Positions 25,008 through 64,000 of a stretch of 64,000 nucleotides of DNA are shown here, piece after piece. Source of the DNA: Escherichia coli (GTDB lineage Bacteria; Pseudomonadota; Gammaproteobacteria; Enterobacterales; Enterobacteriaceae); the NCBI RefSeq assembly GCF_001677475.2, contig NZ_CP015229.1; one strand, given 5' to 3'. A program made the position numbers and the translations under genes. The notes beneath the pieces are model-generated. The model saw only the letters and a list, made by a program, of their open reading frames with translations. It was not told the DNA's origin and searched no databases. Positions within the stretch are counted from its first letter, which is position 1, and each line of letters starts with the position of its first letter.

Positions 25008-25446
25008 ATGTCTGCCGCAGGAAAGAGCAACCCACTGGCAATCAGTGGCCTGGTTGTGCTCACACTTATCTGGAGTTATAGCTGGATTTTCATGAAGCAA
25101 GTCACCAGCTACATCGGTGCCTTCGACTTCACCGCCTTACGCTGCATTTTCGGCGCTCTCGTTTTATTCATCGTCCTTTTATTACGTGGTCGCGGAATGC
25201 GCCCGACGCCGTTTAAATACACCTTAGCCATCGCCCTGTTACAAACCTGTGGGATGGTTGGCCTGGCGCAGTGGGCGCTGGTCAGCGGCGGAGCGGGGAA
25301 GGTGGCGATCCTGAGCTATACCATGCCGTTCTGGGTGGTGATTTTCGCCGCGTTGTTTCTCGGTGAACGCCTGCGACGTGGGCAATATTTCGCGATAATG
25401 ATTGCCGCTTTCGGCTTATTTTTGGTGTTGCAGCCGTGGCAACTCG
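25008..25446 (+). pseudogene. yijE: yijE 5' fragment (codons 1-146 of a 301-aa EamA/DMT transporter), truncated by IS insertion
   Basis: [22 protein letters not shown]...LVLQPWQL then frame enters the IS and stops after 1 codon; 146 + 155 native codons = 301, the K-12 YijE length. Confidence 0.85.
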
Positions 25447-25539
25447 TATGAGACGACAATAACTCAGTCCGCCTGGCGCCGATTATTCTGGCCGGTTTTG
25501 TAACCTGAGTGTCATTTACATGATCCAACAGGAAATGGC

Positions 25540-27039
25540 GTGACGCTCAATACTTCTCAGGTCAGTTACTATATGACTCAGCGTAAGAAAGGTATAACTC
25601 AGCATATCTCGGCCATGAAGGCTGGTATCTCAGTCCGTTCTGGTCGTCGGATCGAAAAAGGAGAGTGGGCAAAAAACAGTGTTCGGCACTGGCGCACACG
25701 CAAAGATCCTCTGGAAGCTGTGTGGGACAGCATGCTTGTTCCTCTGTTGAAAGAGAGGCCGGCTCTGACACCAACAACTCTACTGGAGATGCTACAGGAT
25801 AAATATCCCGGCCAGTACCCCAACAGCCTTCGAAGAACAATGCAACGGCGGGTTCGCGAATGGAAACTACAGTATGGTACAGAGCAGGAGGTCATGTTCC
25901 GCCAGCAACATCAGCCCGGCCTGCGAGGCCTGTCGGACTTTACTGAACTGAAAGGTGTAGTTGTCACCATCGCCGGTAAGTTGTTGGCGCATAAGTTGTA
26001 TCACTTCCGTCTGGAATGGAGCCACTGGAGCTGGATGCGGGTTGTTCTGGGTGGTGAGAGCTTCTCTGCTCTGGCTGAAGGCCTGCAGGAAGCCCTCGGA
26101 CAACTGGGCGGAGTGCCGGTAGAACATAAAACGGACAGCCTGAGGGCAGCATGGAAACAACAGGGCGAAGATGGACGCCGCGAGCTGACTGAGCGTTATG
26201 CTACTCTCTGTCAGCACTACGGAATGCAGGGCGTACACAATAATGCCGGTCGGGGCCACGAAAATGGCTCGGTTGAAAGTGCCCACGGACATCTGAAAAG
26301 GCGTATCTGTCAGGCGCTGATACTGCGGGGCAGTAACGACTTCAGCACCATAGAAGAATATCAGGCCTTCATCACTCAGCAGGTTATGCGGCACAACCGT
26401 AACAATCAGGATCTGGTCAAGGAAGAACGTCTTCATCTGAAACCGCTGCCGCTTCGTCGCAGTGCTGACTATGATGAGCTGACTGTGAGGGTTAGTCGCA
26501 GCAGTACCATCAATGTGAAGCACGTCGTCTACAGCGTACCTTCCCGGCTTGTAGGTCAACTGTTACGGGTCAGGTTATGGGACGATCGTCTGAGCTGTTA
26601 CGTTGGCAGCAGCGAGGTCATGAGCTGCCCTCGCGTCAGACCAGAAAAAGGGAAGACGCGGGCCCGTCGTATCGACTTCCGACATGTGATCGACAGTCTG
26701 GCAAAAAAGCCCGGTGCGTTCTGCCATGCAACGCTGAGAAATGACATCCTGCCGGACGATGAATGGCGGAGGCTGTGGCGTCGCTTATGTAATCATCTGG
26801 AGCCCGATATGGCAGGAAGGCTGATGGTACATGCCCTGAAACTGGCTGCAGGATACGACGATATCTCAGTCGTGGCAAAAGGTATGGAGCAGATGCTGAA
26901 TACCCCGGGAAACGTGGATCTGCACCGGCTGATGCGCTTCCTGGGTATAAAAGAAAAGGCGTTGCCGGTAGTCAATGTGATACAGCATAACCTGAGCAGT
27001 TATGAGCAACTACTGCGTGGCAAGGGAGGTTCGCAGTGA
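25540..27039 (+). CDS. istA: IS21-family transposase IstA (up to 499 aa; start uncertain, GTG at 25540 or ATG at 25573)
   Basis: N-terminal HTH-like region, central DDE-type integrase-like region, C-terminal extension; followed by overlapping istB. Confidence 0.8.
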   Translation: MTLNTSQVSYYMTQRKKGITQHISAMKAGISVRSGRRIEKGEWAKNSVRHWRTRKDPLEAVWDSMLVPLLKERPALTPTTLLEMLQDKYPGQYPNSLRRTMQRRVREWKLQYGTEQEVMFRQQHQPGLRGLSDFTELKGVVVTIAGKLLAHKLYHFRLEWSHWSWMRVVLGGESFSALAEGLQEALGQLGGVPVEHKTDSLRAAWKQQGEDGRRELTERYATLCQHYGMQGVHNNAGRGHENGSVESAHGHLKRRICQALILRGSNDFSTIEEYQAFITQQVMRHNRNNQDLVKEERLHLKPLPLRRSADYDELTVRVSRSSTINVKHVVYSVPSRLVGQLLRVRLWDDRLSCYVGSSEVMSCPRVRPEKGKTRARRIDFRHVIDSLAKKPGAFCHATLRNDILPDDEWRRLWRRLCNHLEPDMAGRLMVHALKLAAGYDDISVVAKGMEQMLNTPGNVDLHRLMRFLGIKEKALPVVNVIQHNLSSYEQLLRGKGGSQ

Positions 27040-27791
27040 GCAATATCCATCACCTTGAACATAGCCTGCGTAAACTACGCCTGACACGAGTTGGAGCTGA
27101 ATGGCACGCTCTGGAAAAACGAGCGCTGGCAGAAGGCTGGACACCATCGCGCTATCTTCTGACGCTATGCAATGAAGAACTCCTGTGGCGCGAGAGTGAA
27201 AAACTGCGTCGTTATAAAAAGGAGGCCCGGTTGCCAGTTGCCAAAACGCTGAGCGAATACGACTTCAGTCAGGTGCCGGAACTGAATGGAGCTCAGTTCC
27301 GGCAACTCTGTGAAACGACAGACTGGGTTGATGCAGGAGAAAACGTTCTGCTGTTCGGAGCCAGCGGGTTGGGGAAAAGCCATCTGGCGGCAGCGATCGT
27401 GGATGGCGTAGTAGGTCAGGGCTACCGGGCCCGGTTCTACAGCGCAGGAGAGCTGTTGCAGGAACTACGTAAAGCCAGAGCTCAGTTGAAACTGAATGAG
27501 CTGCTACTGAAACTGGATCGCTACCGGGTGATAGTGGTGGATGATCTTGGCTATGTAAAACGCGATAGTGCCGAAACGGGTGTGCTGTTCGAGTTAATAG
27601 CGCATCGCTATGAACGTGGGAGCCTGGTGATAACCAGTAACCATCCGTTCAGCATGTGGGGCAGCATCTTCGTGGATGAGACTATGGCGGTGGCTGCGGC
27701 AGACAGGCTGATCCATCACGGATATATGTTCGAACTGAAAGGGGAAAGCTACAGGAAAAAGACAGCGAAGGCAGTAACAAGCGCGACTTGA
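27036..27791 (+). CDS. istB: IS21-family helper ATPase IstB (251 aa, GTG start overlapping istA stop)
   Basis: Walker A GASGLGKSH and Walker B VIVVDDLGY (AAA+/DnaC-like); GGAGG RBS at 27025-27029; GTG at 27036 overlaps TGA of istA. Confidence 0.85.
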   Translation: MSNIHHLEHSLRKLRLTRVGAEWHALEKRALAEGWTPSRYLLTLCNEELLWRESEKLRRYKKEARLPVAKTLSEYDFSQVPELNGAQFRQLCETTDWVDAGENVLLFGASGLGKSHLAAAIVDGVVGQGYRARFYSAGELLQELRKARAQLKLNELLLKLDRYRVIVVDDLGYVKRDSAETGVLFELIAHRYERGSLVITSNHPFSMWGSIFVDETMAVAAADRLIHHGYMFELKGESYRKKTAKAVTSAT

Positions 27792-27856
27792 TGTCGCCCT
27801 GAAGGGTGCGGCCAGTATAGTTGGCGCGAGTCGGCAAAACTAGTTGACGTCTAATA

Positions 27857-28329
27857 AACTCGATTTTTCTTCGATGAAAAGTGCCATGCTGGCAATCCTC
27901 TCCGGTGTTAGTTGGGGGGCGAGCGCGATTGTTGCTAAACGTCTGTATGCCCGTCATCCGCGCGTGGATTTATTGTCGTTAACATCCTGGCAGATGCTCT
28001 ATGCGGCGCTGGTGATGAGTGTGGTCGCTTTACTGGTGCCGCAACGTGAAATTGACTGGCAGCCCACCGTGTTCTGGGCGCTGGCCTACAGTGCGATTCT
28101 GGCGACGGCGCTGGCGTGGAGCTTATGGCTGTTTGTGCTGAAAAACTTGCCTGCCAGTATTGCCAGCTTAAGCACACTGGCCGTTCCCGTTTGCGGCGTA
28201 CTCTTTTCCTGGTGGCTGCTCGGTGAGAATCCGGGGGCCGTTGAAGGTAGCGGTATTGTGCTGATTGTGCTGGCACTGGCGCTGGTGAGCCGTAAGAAAA
28301 AAGAAGCCGTCAGTGTAAAAAGGATCTGA
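27857..28329 (+). pseudogene. yijE: yijE 3' fragment (codons 147-301), separated from the 5' fragment by the IS
   Basis: Frame [20 protein letters not shown]...[10 protein letters not shown] continues the EamA-domain transporter; first two codons derive from the target-site duplication. Confidence 0.85.
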
Positions 28330-51855: not shown

Positions 51856-52184
51856 GGTAGGGCTTACCTGTTCTTATACATAAAAGCAACAGAATGGTAA
51901 CATTTTATCGCGGGTAAGCCAATTGATCCCCGTCATTAATCTGGCTATAGCGTGAGCGGCCTTTGCTTTGTCTGCCCCCTTCTTAACCCATTTATTTACT
52001 ATTAATCGCTTTTTCTTATGGCTGATAGTTTTATCTTGCCGAAGCGTGCTTTTTTGTTATTGTCTTTATGAAATATTCTTATAAAACAAACATATAAATA
52101 TTTTATATTGATGAGTTATTTGTATTTATACCATCAATAAAATCCGTTAATTAGCCTGTTTATAAGTGAATAAAGGAATAGCCG

Positions 52185-53351
52185 ATGATCGAACACTATA
52201 TTCGAGGGTTTGAGGAAGAACTGCGTGAGATCCGCCATCAGATCCACGAAAACCCGGAGCTGGGATTACAAGAATTTAAAACCAGTGCTTTGGTGGCGGA
52301 AAAGCTGCGTCAGTGGGGCTATGAAGTAGAGCAAGGACTGGCGACGACGGGGATAGTGGCCACGTTAAAAGTGGGCGACGGAGAGAAAAGTATTGGCCTG
52401 CGGGCGGATATGGATGCGCTGCCAATTTATGAAAATAGTGGCAAGCCCTGGGCCAGTAAACATCCTGGTTTAATGCACGCCTGCGGGCATGACGGGCATA
52501 CCACCATACTGCTGGGGGCCGCGCGTTATTTTGCCGAAACCCGCCGTTTTAACGGCACGTTACGTCTTATCTTCCAGCCTGCGGAAGAGATGATTAACGG
52601 CGGTGAGATCATGGTTAAAGAGGGGCTTTTTGATCATTTCCCCTGCGATGTCATTTTCGGCATGCATAACATGCCCGGTCTGCCGGTGGGTAAGTTTTAT
52701 TTCCAGCCAGGGGAACTGATGGCGTCAATGGATCAGTTCCATATTACAGTTCGTGGTTGTGGCGGACACGGTGCGATCCCGCACAAAGCCATCGATCCGG
52801 TGCTGGTTGCCGCACATATCACCACCGCATTACAAAGCATTGTGTCGCGCAATGTCGATCCGCTGGAAGCGGCGGTAATTACCGTCGGCAGCATTGTTGC
52901 GGGTGAGGCGGCTAACGTCATTCCTGACAGTGCTGAGATGAAAATCAGCGTCCGCTCTCTTAGCCGCGATACCCGACAACTTCTTCTGACCCGTATTCCT
53001 GCTCTGGCACAAACCCAGGCTGCCAGCTTTGGTGCTACGGCTGAGGTTACGCATGTTAACGGTACACCGGTATTAGTGAATGACGAGGAGATGGCGCGCT
53101 TCGCCTGGCAGGTGGCGTGTAAAACGTTTGGTGAAGATCGGGCCGAGTTTGGCATCAAGCCCCTGATGGGCAGTGAGGATTTCTCTTTCATGCTGGAAGC
53201 CCAGCCGAAAGGCGCTTTTTTGCTGTTCGGTAATGGCGATGTCGGGGAAGGTTCCTGCATGGTGCATAACCCGGGTTACGACTTCAACGATGCAAGTCTG
53301 GTCCCGGCATGCAGCTACTGGGGCGCACTGGTAGAAGCTTGGCTGCAATAA
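52185..53351 (+). CDS. M20D-family amidohydrolase (hippurate hydrolase / N-acyl-amino-acid amidohydrolase-like), 388 aa; accessory gene not in K-12
   Basis: Metal-binding motifs typical of M20D enzymes (HACGHDGH, ...GEE...); GGAA RBS-like upstream; no paralogue recalled at this locus in K-12. Confidence 0.8.
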   Translation: MIEHYIRGFEEELREIRHQIHENPELGLQEFKTSALVAEKLRQWGYEVEQGLATTGIVATLKVGDGEKSIGLRADMDALPIYENSGKPWASKHPGLMHACGHDGHTTILLGAARYFAETRRFNGTLRLIFQPAEEMINGGEIMVKEGLFDHFPCDVIFGMHNMPGLPVGKFYFQPGELMASMDQFHITVRGCGGHGAIPHKAIDPVLVAAHITTALQSIVSRNVDPLEAAVITVGSIVAGEAANVIPDSAEMKISVRSLSRDTRQLLLTRIPALAQTQAASFGATAEVTHVNGTPVLVNDEEMARFAWQVACKTFGEDRAEFGIKPLMGSEDFSFMLEAQPKGAFLLFGNGDVGEGSCMVHNPGYDFNDASLVPACSYWGALVEAWLQ

Positions 53352-53393
53352 ATAAAACAACACACAACAACACTTTTTGGCAAGGAACATGGA

Positions 53394-54710
53394 ATGACGG
53401 CGATCGTAAATGAAACCGTGAGTGTGAAGAAAAAGCCCAGCGGTAAGCGGGTGATTTTTGCTTCGGCGTTTGGCAATGCGCTCGAATTTTTTGATTTTGG
53501 CGTTTACAACTTTTTTGTGGTCTATATCAGTACGCTTTTCTTCCCACCCAGCGCTGATCACAATGTCGCGCTGTTACTGGCATTTGCAACATTTGGCGTG
53601 AGTTTTTTTATGCGCCCGCTTGGTGGAATTATCGTCGGGGCCTGGGCCGATCGCTTCGGACGCAAACCCGCGATGGTGTTCACCATTGCCCTGATGAGCC
53701 TCGGTACACTGATGATCGGCATCGCACCGACGTATGAAACGGCGGGCTATTGGGGAACCGCGACGCTGGTGCTGGCGCGTCTAATTCAGGGCGTTGCGGC
53801 AGGAGGCGAAGTCGGTGCCTCAATGTCTTTGTTGGTTGAATCAGCTCCGGCAAATCGTCGCGGCTTTTACAGCAGTTGGTCACTGGCGACTCAAGGCCTG
53901 GCAACAACCTTTGGTGGTGTTGTCGCTTTAGGTTTAAGCGCATGGCTGCCCTTTGCGACAGGTTCAGAAACCGTAATGGCTGAATGGGGCTGGCGTGTGC
54001 CATTTTTTATTGGCGTGTTATTAGCACCTATCGGTTGCTGGTTGCGTCTGAGCCTGGAAAATGACGTACCTGAGCTAGTGCGCAATAAAAAAGCTGCTAC
54101 CAGCGAAAGCGCGTTCTCTCTGCTCCTGCAACATAAGGCGACTATCGTTAACGGCGTTTTACTCGCTATTGGTAGCACGGTCGCAACCTATATCTCCCTC
54201 TTTTATTACGGCACCTGGGCGGCGAAGTATCTGGCGATGCCTCAACATTATTCTCATGCAGCGATGTTACTGGCGGGCGTTATTACGTTTGTGGGTGCGC
54301 TGCTTGTGGGGATGTTGTGCGATTCGGTCGGGCGTAAAAAGCTGATTTTAATCTCCCGTGTGATGGTGCTGATCTGTAGCTGGCCGTCATTCTGGCTGTT
54401 GGTGAATTACCCAAGCCCTGGCATGTTGCTGACGGTGGTTTTCGTGATGGTCAGCTTTACCACGCTTGGCGGTGTGCCGGTAATGTTGCTGATCTCTGAA
54501 CTGTTGCCGAAACGGATTCGGGCATTGGGTTTTGCGCTGGTTTATAGCATTGGTGTGGCAATCTTTGGCGGTTTTGCTCAATATTTCGCTACGCAATCCA
54601 TCGTGTTGCTGGATAGTTTGACAGCTCCGGCGTGGTATTTGGGTGGAGGCACGTTGCTGTCGATGCTGGCGTTGTTGTACGTAAAAGAACCGGCCAAAGA
54701 ATTGCAGTAA
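53394..54710 (+). CDS. MFS transporter, metabolite:H+ symporter (MHS) family-like (438 aa); accessory gene not in K-12
   Basis: ~12 predicted hydrophobic helices; MFS loop motif [10 protein letters not shown]; MHS-like signatures [26 protein letters not shown] (compare ProP/KgtP/ShiA). Confidence 0.8.
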
Positions 54711-56963: not shown

Positions 56964-57090
56964 GATGTATCCTGAAAAATTAAAGTACGCGGCGATTGTA
57001 GGGATTGCTCATCAGATGTCCAGATCTTGATGAATTCCTATTTGTGAGCTACGTCTGGACAGTAACTTGTTACAACCTGTAGCATCCACT

Positions 57091-57331
57091 TGCCGGTCCT
57101 GTGAGTTAATAGGGAATCCAGTGCGAATCTGGAGCTGACGCGCAGCGGTAAGGAAAGGTGCGATGATCGCGTTATGCGGACACTGCCATTCGGTGGGAAG
57201 TCATCATCTCTTAGTATCTTAGATACCCCTCCAAGCCCGAAGACCTGCCGGCCAACGTCGCATCTGGTTCTCATCATCGCGTAATATTGATGAAACCTGC
57301 GGCATCCTTCTTCTATTGTGGATGCTTTACA
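57091..57331 (+). promoter_or_regulatory. btuB 5' leader containing adenosylcobalamin riboswitch
   Basis: Leader matches the btuB riboswitch as recalled (gccggtcctgtgagttaatagggaatccagtgcgaatctggagctgacgcgcagcggtaaggaaaggtgcg...gaagacctgccggcc B12-box region). Confidence 0.85.
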
Positions 57332-59176
57332 ATGATTAAAAAAGCTTCGCTGCTGACGGCGTGTTCTGTCACAGCCTTTTCCGCTTGGGCACAGGATACC
57401 AGCCCGGATACTCTCGTTGTTACTGCTAACCGTTTTGAACAGCCGCGCAGCACTGTGCTTGCACCAACCACCGTTGTGACGCGTCAGGATATCGACCGCT
57501 GGCAGTCGACCTCGGTCAATGATGTGCTGCGCCGTCTCCCTGGTGTGGATATCACCCAAAACGGCGGTTCAGGTCAGCTCTCATCTATTTTTATTCGCGG
57601 TACAAATGCCAGTCATGTGTTGGTGTTAATTGATGGCGTCCGCCTGAATCTGGCGGGGGTGAGTGGTTCTGCTGACCTTAGTCAGTTCCCTATTGCGCTT
57701 GTCCAGCGTGTTGAATATATCCGTGGGCCGCGCTCCGCTGTTTATGGTTCAGATGCAATAGGCGGGGTCGTGAATATCATCACGACGCGCGATCACCCCG
57801 GAACGGAAATTTCAGCAGGGTGGGGAAGCAATAGCTATCAGAACTATGATGTCTCTACACAGCAACAACTGGGGGATAAGACACGGGTAACGCTGTTGGG
57901 CGATTATGCCCATACTCATGGTTATGATGTTGTCGCCTATGGTAATACCGGAACGCAAGCGCAGCCAGATAACGATGGTTTTTTAAGTAAAACGCTTTAT
58001 GGCGCGCTGGAGCATAATTTTACTGATGTCTGGAGCGGCTTTGTGCGCGGCTATGGCTATGATAATCGTACTAATTATGACGCATATTATTCTCCCGGCT
58101 CGCCGCTGGTCGATACACGTAAACTCTATAGCCAAAGTTGGGATGCCGGACTGCGCTATAACGGCGAACTGATTAAATCACAACTCATTACCAGCTACAG
58201 CCATAGCAAAGATTACAACTACGATCCGCATTATGGTCGTTATGATTCGTCCGCGACGCTCGATGAGATGAAACAGTACACCGTCCAGTGGGCAAACAAT
58301 GTCATCGTTGGTCACGGTAGTATTGGTGCGGGTGTCGACTGGCAGAAACAGACTACGACGCCGGGTACAGGTTATGTTGAGGATGGATATGATCAACGTA
58401 ATACCGGCATCTATCTGACCGGGCTGCAACAAGTCGGCGATTTTACCTTTGAAGGCGCAGCACGCAGCGACGATAACTCACAGTTTGGTCGTCATGGAAC
58501 CTGGCAAACCAGCGTCGGTTGGGAATTCATCGAAGGTTATCGGTTTATCGCTTCTTATGGTACGTCGTACAAGGCACCTAATCTTGGGCAACTCTACGGC
58601 TTCTACGGTAATCCGGATCTGAACCCTGAGAAAAGCAAACAGTGGGAAGGGGCGTTTGAAGGCTTAACCGCTGGAGTGAACTGGCGTATTTCCGGATACC
58701 GTAACGATGTTAGTGACTTGATCGATTACGATGATCACACCCTCAAATACTACAATGAAGGGAAAGCGCGAATTAAGGGCGTCGAGGCGACCGCCAATTT
58801 TGATACCGGACCGCTGACGCATACGGTGAGTTATGATTATGTCGATGCGCGTAACGCGATTACCGACACGCCGTTGCTACGTCGCGCTAAACAGCAGGTG
58901 AAATATCAGCTCGACTGGCAACTGTATGACTTCGACTGGGGTATTACTTATCAGTATTTAGGCACTCGCTATGATAAGGATTACTCATCTTATCCTTATC
59001 AAACCGTTAAAATGGGCGGTGTGAGCTTGTGGGATCTTGCGGTTGCGTATCCGGTCACCTCTCACCTGACAGTTCGTGGTAAAATAGCCAACCTGTTCGA
59101 CAAAGATTATGAGACAGTCTATGGCTACCAAACTGCAGGACGGGAATACACCTTGTCTGGCAGCTACACCTTCTGA
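57332..59176 (+). CDS. btuB: TonB-dependent vitamin B12 outer-membrane transporter (614 aa)
   Basis: [38 protein letters not shown] (signal peptide plus TonB box DTLVVTA); C-terminal ...SGSYTF. Confidence 0.96.
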
Positions 59177-59978
59177 ACCACGTCCCACCGTGCTGGTGTT
59201 TGACTCCGGCGTCGGTGGGTTGTCGGTCTATGACGAGATCCGGCATCTCTTACCGGATCTCCATTACATTTATGCTTTCGATAACGTCGCTTTCCCGTAT
59301 GGCGAAAAAAGCGAAGAGTTTATTGTTGAGCGAGTGGTGGCAATTGTCACCGCGGTGCAAGAACGTTATCCCCTTGCGCTGGCTGTGGTCGCTTGCAACA
59401 CTGCCAGTACCGTTTCACTTCCTGCATTACGCGAAAAGTTCGACTTCCCGGTTGTTGGTGTCGTGCCGGCGATTAAACCTGCTGCACGTCTGACGGCAAA
59501 TGGCATTGTCGGATTACTGGCAACCCGCGGAACAGTTAAACGTTCTTATACTCATGAGCTGATCGCGCGTTTCGCTAATGAATGCCAGATAGAAATGCTG
59601 GGCTCGGCAGAGATGGTTGAGTTGGCTGAAGCGAAGCTGCATGGCGAAGATGTTTCTCTGGATGCACTAAAACGTATCCTACGCCCGTGGTTAAGAATGA
59701 AAGAGCCGCCAGATACCGTTGTATTGGGTTGCACCCATTTCCCTCTACTACAAGAAGAACTGTTACAAGTGCTGCCAGAGGGAACCCGGCTGGTGGATTC
59801 TGGCGCAGCGATTGCTCGCCGAACGGCTTGGTTGTTAGAACATGAAGCCCCGGATGCAAAATCTGCCGATGCGAATATTGCCTTTTGTATGGCAATGACG
59901 CCAGAAGCTGAACAATTATTGCCCGTTTTACAGCGTTACGGCTTCGAAACGCTCGAAAAACTGGCAGTTTTAGGCTGA
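59121..59978 (+). CDS. murI: Glutamate racemase (285 aa)
   Basis: [40 protein letters not shown]; 5' end overlaps btuB 3' end by 56 nt in a different frame. Confidence 0.94.
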
Positions 59979-60000
59979 TTTGGTTGAATGTTGCGCGGTC

Positions 60001-60060
60001 AGAAAATTATTTTAAATTTCCTCTTGTCAGGCCGGAATAACTCCCTATAATGCGCCACCA
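60001..60060 (+). promoter_or_regulatory. rrnB P1 promoter with AT-rich UP element
   Basis: -35 TTGTCA (60024-60029), 16-bp spacer, -10 TATAAT (60046-60051), GC-rich discriminator GCGCCACC; AT-rich UP element 60001-60020. Confidence 0.9.
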
Positions 60061-60142
60061 CTGACACGGAACAACGGCAAACACGCCGCCGGGTCAGCGG
60101 GGTTCTCCTGAGAATTCCGGCAGAGAAAGCAAAAATAAATGC

Positions 60143-60180
60143 TTGACTCTGTAGCGGGAAAGCGTATTATGCACACCCCG
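60143..60180 (+). promoter_or_regulatory. rrnB P2 promoter
   Basis: -35 TTGACT (60143-60148) and -10 TATTAT (60166-60171). Confidence 0.85.
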
Positions 60181-60351
60181 CGCCGCTGAGAAAAAGCGAA
60201 GCGGCACTGCTCTTTAACAATTTATCAGACAATCTGTGTGGGCACTCGAAGATACGGATTCTTAACGTCGCAAGACGAAAAATGAATACCAAGTCTCAAG
60301 AGTGAACACGTAATTCATTACGAAGTTTAATTCTTTGAGCATCAAACTTTT

Positions 60352-61893
<1,542 letters not shown>

Positions 61894-61978
61894 CCTTAAA
61901 GAACTGTGCTTTGCAGTGCTCACACAGATTGTCTGATAGAAAGTGAAAAGCAAGGCGTCTTGCGAAGCAGACTGATAC

Positions 61979-62054
61979 GTCCCCTTCGTCTAGAGGCCCA
62001 GGACACCGCCCTTTCACGGCGGTAACAGGGGTTCGAATCCCCTAGGGGACGCCA
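61979..62054 (+). tRNA. gltT: tRNA-Glu (anticodon UUC) in 16S-23S spacer
   Basis: GTCCCCTTCGTCTAGAGGCCCAGGACACCGCCCTTTCACGGCGGTAACAGGGGTTCGAATCCCCTAGGGGACGCCA; cloverleaf with TTC anticodon. Confidence 0.97.
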
Positions 62055-62247
62055 CTTGCTGGTTTGTGAGTGAAAGTCACCTGCCTTAATATCTCAAAAC
62101 TCATCTTCGGGTGACGTTTGAGATATTTGCTCTTTAAAAATCTGGATCAAGCTGAAAATTGAAACACTGAACAACGAAAGTTGTTCGTGAGTCTCTCAAA
62201 TTTTCGCAACACGATGATGAATCGAAAGAAACATCTTCGGGTTGTGA

Positions 62248-64000
<1,753 letters not shown>

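Follow-up and report, generated by a model that had tools for sequence, protein, structure and literature searches.

The rrnB P1 promoter is the reference system for UP elements, for activation by Fis and for control by ppGpp/DksA and the initiating NTP, so that a further copy of it raises no new question. [quoted passage not shown] In single-molecule assays, removal of the UP element lowered initiation 11-fold by slowing the initial binding of polymerase (bioRxiv 10.1101/2020.02.17.953182). Ahead of the UP element, every rrn P1 has between three and five Fis sites; Fis bound there adds activation through contacts with the alpha C-terminal domains, and in stationary phase rrnB is silenced by H-NS (PMC4696680). 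Because of its short spacer, its G+C-rich discriminator and its unusual start site, P1 forms an open complex that lasts about 1 s (PMC4496709), which makes P1 sensitive to the concentration of initiating ATP and to ppGpp/DksA (PMC7822876). The second promoter, P2, lies 117 nt downstream of P1 (bioRxiv 10.1101/2020.02.17.953182); the rrn P2 promoters have also been described as lying ~120 bp downstream of P1 and as the source of basal rRNA synthesis during slow growth and stationary phase (PMC4696680).

We analysed a stretch of 64,000 nucleotides of Escherichia coli DNA (hereafter the window), near the end of which an initial annotation had placed the tandem promoters of rrnB immediately after murI. 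Positions 59979-60351 were found to be exactly the murI-16S intergenic region, i.e. the 373 nt between the stop codon of murI and the 5' end of the 16S rRNA gene. On its left, murI (glutamate racemase; 59121-59978, + strand, as are the promoter elements, the leader and the RNA genes described below) encodes a protein of 285 aa, of which 283 are identical to K-12 MurI, and murI is also annotated at the corresponding gene in the matching E. coli genomes. On its right follow the 16S rRNA gene (rrsB; 60352-61893; full-length match to Rfam SSU_rRNA_bacteria, 1577 bits), a tRNA-Glu with anticodon UUC, equivalent to gltT (61979-62054 by ARAGORN; Rfam tRNA match at 61979-62051), and a 23S rRNA gene that is truncated by the window edge (62248-64000; Rfam LSU_rRNA_bacteria, model positions 1-1790 of 2925). 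The downstream end of an rrnB operon, 5S rRNA and then murB, would lie past this edge. The part of the 23S gene that lies in the window is 99.2% identical to K-12 by BLAST; a lower value of 93.3% was discarded as an artefact of unequal sequence ends in a global alignment. A match to Rfam StyR-44 (124.9 bits) was noted at 62132-62240, in the spacer just upstream of the 23S rRNA, and is probably part of the 23S precursor leader rather than an independent gene. On neither strand does an ORF of 50 aa or more overlap 59979-60351, and a local scan around this interval found no terminator-like site.

The corresponding region of K-12 MG1655 (rrnB, NC_000913.3 4166286-4166658, between murI and rrsB) has the same length of 373 nt and the same flanking genes. 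The two sequences are identical at 370 of 373 positions, with no indel, and this alignment bore out the naming of the operon as rrnB. The three substitutions are T for C at 60115 (P1 +56), A for G at 60161, in the P2 spacer, and A for G at 60341, 11 nt before the mature 16S; none of them falls in a P1 element or in any hexamer of P1 or P2. No difference from K-12 occurs between 59906 and 60114, a stretch that runs from the Fis region through the UP element and the P1 core to base 55 of the transcript. From this identity and from the gene order, we are highly confident that the region is the transcription control region of the rrnB rRNA operon of an Escherichia coli-type genome, and none of the results spoke against this reading.

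The elements of P1 could be located individually. The -35 hexamer TTGTCA (60024-60029) and the -10 hexamer TATAAT (60046-60051), picked up in a consensus scan, match the sigma-70 consensus at 11/12 positions and are separated by a spacer of 16 bp (GGCCGGAATAACTCCC). The -35 hexamer is identical to that of K-12, and CCCTATAATGCGCC, which includes the -10 hexamer, is invariant in the seven K-12 rrn operons. P1 was numbered from the A that follows the -10 hexamer at a distance of nine bases, as the rule for rrnB P1 prescribes (PMC7822876); this rule and the identity to K-12 put the presumed transcription start at the A at 60060. The G+C-rich discriminator, as defined in PMC7822876, is then GCGCCACC at -8 to -1 (60052-60059), so that hexamers and discriminator all lie where they had been announced. 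The A+T-rich UP element announced ahead of P1 corresponds to 60000-60020 (-60 to -40), with 86% A+T, and is identical in K-12 rrnB, rrnA and rrnC. More generally, all seven rrn paralogs of K-12 have a conserved P1 core.

P2 had been described as TTGACT/TATTAT about 120 bp downstream, and the measured offset between the hexamers of the two promoters is 119 bp. Its -35 hexamer (60143-60148), found in the consensus scan, belongs to the sequence TTGACTCTG, invariant in the seven K-12 rrn operons, and its -10 hexamer (60165-60170) follows after 16 bp; together they match the consensus at 10/12 positions. The spacing of the hexamers is thus 16 bp in P1 and 16 bp in P2, as in K-12, with no mismatch. 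The start of P2 is presumably the C at 60177, 117 nt after the P1 start (bioRxiv 10.1101/2020.02.17.953182). The substitution at 60161 leaves the length of the P2 spacer unchanged. That its A allele changes the strength of P2 relative to K-12 is a minor variant of a reading to which we attach a low probability.

Upstream of P1, the initial annotation had expected Fis sites to extend into the 3' coding end of murI. Fis sites I-III of rrnB P1 are reportedly centred at -71, -102 and -143, a placement said to be that of Ross et al. in the EMBO J in 1990. At these positions the window carries GGTTGAATGTTGCGC (59982-59996, centre -71), GCTCGAAAAACTGGC (59951-59965, centre -102) and GAACAATTATTGCCC (59910-59924, centre -143), which we take, from their positions, to be candidate sites I, II and III, respectively. 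All three are identical to K-12. The stop codon of murI (TGA, 59976-59978) occupies -84 to -82 from the P1 start; candidate sites II and III lie inside murI and site I begins 4 nt after the stop, so that the expectation was borne out at the level of sequence. Over its last ~70 nt, murI also forms the distal portion of the upstream activator region of rrnB P1, and the end of a protein-coding gene would in this way serve the strongest promoter in the cell. An A for G substitution relative to K-12 at 59905, which changes residue 262 of MurI from Gly to Glu, was also noted; it lies 5 nt upstream of Fis site III and outside it.

The suggested motif scan for Fis sites upstream of 60000 gave a mixed outcome. 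Sites I and III match the degenerate Fis motif GNNYRNNWNNYRNNC and site II departs from it at a single position (T at position 12), but the motif shows no enrichment over shuffled sequence: 107 matches were counted in the 64-kb window, against 145 in shuffles, so that it is rarer than expected. The scan was therefore dropped as standalone proof of Fis sites and served solely to demonstrate the motif at the K-12 positions.

Downstream of P2, the region has the features of an rrn leader. A boxB-like hairpin with the stem GCCGCU/AGCGGC is found at 60182-60205 (predicted fold of the RNA 60178-60210, -12.3 kcal/mol) and is identical to K-12 rrnB. It is followed by boxA, the rrn antitermination signal to which NusB/NusE bind, read directly from the sequence as an exact match (TGCTCTTTAACAA, 60208-60220). 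P2 precedes boxA, which begins 38 nt after the P2 -10 hexamer. The block that contains boxA does not vary among the seven K-12 operons, and between boxA and the start of the 16S these operons differ at only two single-base positions. Positions 60222-60264, which include boxC (TGTGTGGG, 60235-60242, read from the sequence), are predicted to pair with 61898-61940, just past the 3' end of the 16S. The duplex has a computed energy of -58.0 kcal/mol, against -29.9 ± 4.4 for shuffled partners. By this prediction, the two segments are the 5' and 3' arms of the long stem that encloses the 16S in the precursor, a predicted substrate of RNase III.

We considered the possibility that the locus is rrnB by position only, its content being a gene-conversion mosaic of the seven rrn operons, so that downstream of P1 'rrnB' would designate an address more than a sequence. 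All three bases that differ from K-12 rrnB are alleles found in paralogous K-12 operons: the T at 60115 is the state in rrnG, the A at 60161 that in rrnC/D/E/H and the A at 60341 that in rrnC/D/E/G/H. This pattern fits concerted evolution among rrn copies, as judged from the alleles. The spacer between 16S and tRNA-Glu (61894-61978) points in the same direction, since it measures 85 nt in the window and 171 nt in K-12 MG1655 rrnB, i.e. 86 nt less, and the closest E. coli strains also have the short form. Yet the same alleles are the common rrnB state in many E. coli strains, and K-12 may therefore be the odd one out; moreover, a mosaic origin refines the main explanation rather than competing with it. 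We hold it to be possible, with the odds somewhat against it. As to the spacer itself, the additional block of K-12 rrnB is missing from the window and from strains 14EC033 and 19KM1831, and the title of Harvey et al. 1988, as it appears in the reference list of PMC4696680, refers to an rrnB 'spacer loop sequence' that can be lost.

The control region was also set against the divergence of its surroundings. For the 25-kb stretches 1-25000 and 35000-59978, identity to any of the 5426 complete E. coli RefSeq genomes did not exceed 97.9%, and the divergence from the best match is spread fairly evenly, at 96-99% identity per kb. These figures suggest that the source is an Escherichia lineage separated by about 2% from every complete E. 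coli genome sampled. By comparison, many complete E. coli genomes match the 452 nt from 59900 to 60351 at 100% identity, with murI under the match in 12/12 among the matches listed. Purifying selection need not be the only cause of this identity: the rrnB control region could have been imported recently from mainstream E. coli, through recombination or gene conversion, an idea that we consider improbable.

Several other features of the neighbourhood were noted. A cobalamin riboswitch precedes btuB at 57077-57266 (Rfam RF00174, 86 bits), in a trmA-btuB intergenic region that is 99.7% identical to K-12. btuB itself (57332-59176) is only 95.9% identical to K-12, against 99.5% for its neighbour murI and 98.2% for trmA, and in the bin at 58-59 kb, identity to the best-matching strain drops to 93.5%; btuB is a local hot spot of divergence, as might be expected of an outer-membrane receptor used by phages and colicins. 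From hslU to rrlB, the window is collinear with K-12 except for two insertions. About 2.4 kb in the yijE region (~25446-27857) are missing from K-12 there and hold two ORFs that match a Mu-transposase C-terminal domain and IstB_IS21 (E = 9e-62), which identifies this segment as an insertion sequence of the IS21 family. Between sthA and fabR (~51974-54676), about 2.7 kb missing from K-12 encode an M20 family peptidase/aminoacylase (52185-53351) and an MFS transporter (53394-54710). Other E. coli strains have the same two genes at sthA-fabR, with the transporter annotated as a citrate-proton symporter.

Another explanation would attribute the promoters to rrnA, rrnC or rrnG instead of rrnB. P1 by itself does not distinguish between these operons: its core and the UP element are identical in K-12 rrnA, rrnB and rrnC, which agree from about -63 across P1 and over most of the interval up to P2, and the core recurs in rrnG. 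P1 sequence alone can therefore not name rrnB, and the three bases that differ from K-12 rrnB, being states of other operons, would also suit this explanation. To separate the operons, the window was aligned with 500 nt of sequence preceding each of the seven 16S genes of K-12. Upstream of about -63, it aligned to rrnB and to none of the other six. Furthermore, murI ends 82 nt before the P1 start, with trmA, btuB and murI preceding the promoters as in K-12, and the order trmA, cobalamin riboswitch, btuB, murI, 16S, tRNA-Glu, 23S is that of the K-12 annotation. The 16S-23S spacer contributed as well. It contains a single tRNA, tRNA-Glu, at the place of gltT in K-12 rrnB, which excludes rrnA, whose spacer is of the Ile/Ala type. 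The initial annotation had taken this tRNA, which is indeed present, to identify the operon type; it narrows the type, yet is common to several rrn operons. The identical copies adjoin murI in 12/12 E. coli genomes among the matches listed, and a mis-assembly joining murI to another operon is unlikely, since the same murI-promoter-16S junction is present in 5403 of 5426 complete E. coli genomes. It is extremely unlikely, then, that the promoters are those of another operon. We assign the locus to rrnB, an assignment settled by the murI/btuB/trmA flank together with the single tRNA-Glu.

The hexamers taken by themselves were compared with composition-preserving shuffles. Over both strands of the 64-kb window, pairs matching at 10/12 positions or more numbered 9, against 10.4 ± 3.0 in shuffles, i.e. 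they were not enriched; pairs matching at 11/12 or more numbered 2, against 0.5 ± 0.7. A local scan of 59500-60700 found 2 sigma-70-like sites, both on the + strand, against 1.0 ± 1.0 in shuffles. Given this absence of enrichment, the hexamer scan was rejected as independent evidence. That the hexamers are a chance likeness and that transcription of the operon starts elsewhere, e.g. inside murI or btuB, is hardly credible. Equally good hexamer pairs do turn up as often in shuffled sequence, but in vitro transcription, single-molecule and cryo-EM work was done on K-12 promoters identical in sequence to these, the core is invariant across paralogs and diverged lineages, and both sites lie on the + strand, the correct one, within the 373 bases just upstream of the 16S gene. 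The lesson is a methodological one: motif matches alone carry little weight, and the call of an rrnB control region, which is correct, rests not on hexamer or Fis motifs but on identity to a characterised sequence, on synteny and on conservation.

The mechanism that we propose for the rrnB control region is taken from published work on the identical K-12 sequence and assumes that RNA polymerase, Fis and DksA of the source behave as in K-12. Sigma-70 RNA polymerase would be recruited to P1 very fast, because the alpha C-terminal domains would bind the UP element and contact Fis at site I. By analogy with K-12, the output of P1 should track the concentration of initiating ATP and cease under the action of ppGpp and DksA, which amounts to stringent and growth-rate control, and P2 would keep up a basal level of rRNA synthesis when growth is slow and in stationary phase. 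P1 and P2 transcripts alike would carry boxA, allowing a Nus-factor antitermination complex to assemble, and pairing of the leader with the sequence that follows the 16S would generate the substrate of RNase III.

Conservation was also examined beyond E. coli. A scan with one genome per species for a module composed of the Fis I motif, the UP element and the -35 hexamer yielded only 5 loci in 3 assemblies, with no other genera represented except by a contaminant contig. This contig (NZ_JAHZMP010000136.1, 504 bp, low coverage) comes from a Terrisporobacter mayombei assembly and is 98% identical to the Escherichia murI-rrnB P1 region; it is almost certainly an assembly contamination. The scan returned the rrnB loci of two divergent genomes, Escherichia sp. 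MOD1-EC7003 and 'E. coli' SCPM-O-B-8794, whose flanking genes are only 91-95% identical to the window. For the latter (NZ_JAATUR010000040.1), labelled 'Escherichia coli', this range was observed over sthA-murI, and the strain may belong to another Escherichia species or cryptic clade.

In both divergent lineages, the murI flank, the Fis sites, the UP element and the P1 core are conserved. P1 agrees base for base from about -63 to +55, save for position -59, where MOD1-EC7003 shows an A/G difference. All five aligned sequences have the same Fis site II; site I of MOD1-EC7003 differs only at two unconstrained positions of the motif, and site III of a divergent Escherichia has a G to A change at motif position 12 that keeps the required purine. 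The interval between P1 and P2 resembles that of K-12 rrnG (GAATCTCAAC) and is 2 nt shorter before P2. This conservation amounts to a small phylogenetic footprint and, as a pattern of sequence change, is consistent with function.

The rrnB control region is already known in full detail and the copy in the window presents no anomaly; its value is that of an annotation anchor only, which fixes the window as the trmA-btuB-murI-rrnB segment of an Escherichia coli-type chromosome. Among the other K-12 operons, rrnA and rrnC show at most single-base differences in the UP element, the P1 core, the P1-P2 interval and P2, whereas upstream of about -63 these two operons are unrelated to the window, being flanked by hemG and yieP rather than by murI. 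The arrangement of their Fis sites differs for this reason, and the spacer of K-12 rrnA encodes tRNA-Ile and tRNA-Ala. K-12 rrnB, in contrast, shares with the window the sequences of the Fis sites, the UP element, the hexamers, spacer and discriminator of P1, the hexamers and spacing of P2, boxB, boxA, boxC and the arm of the processing stem.
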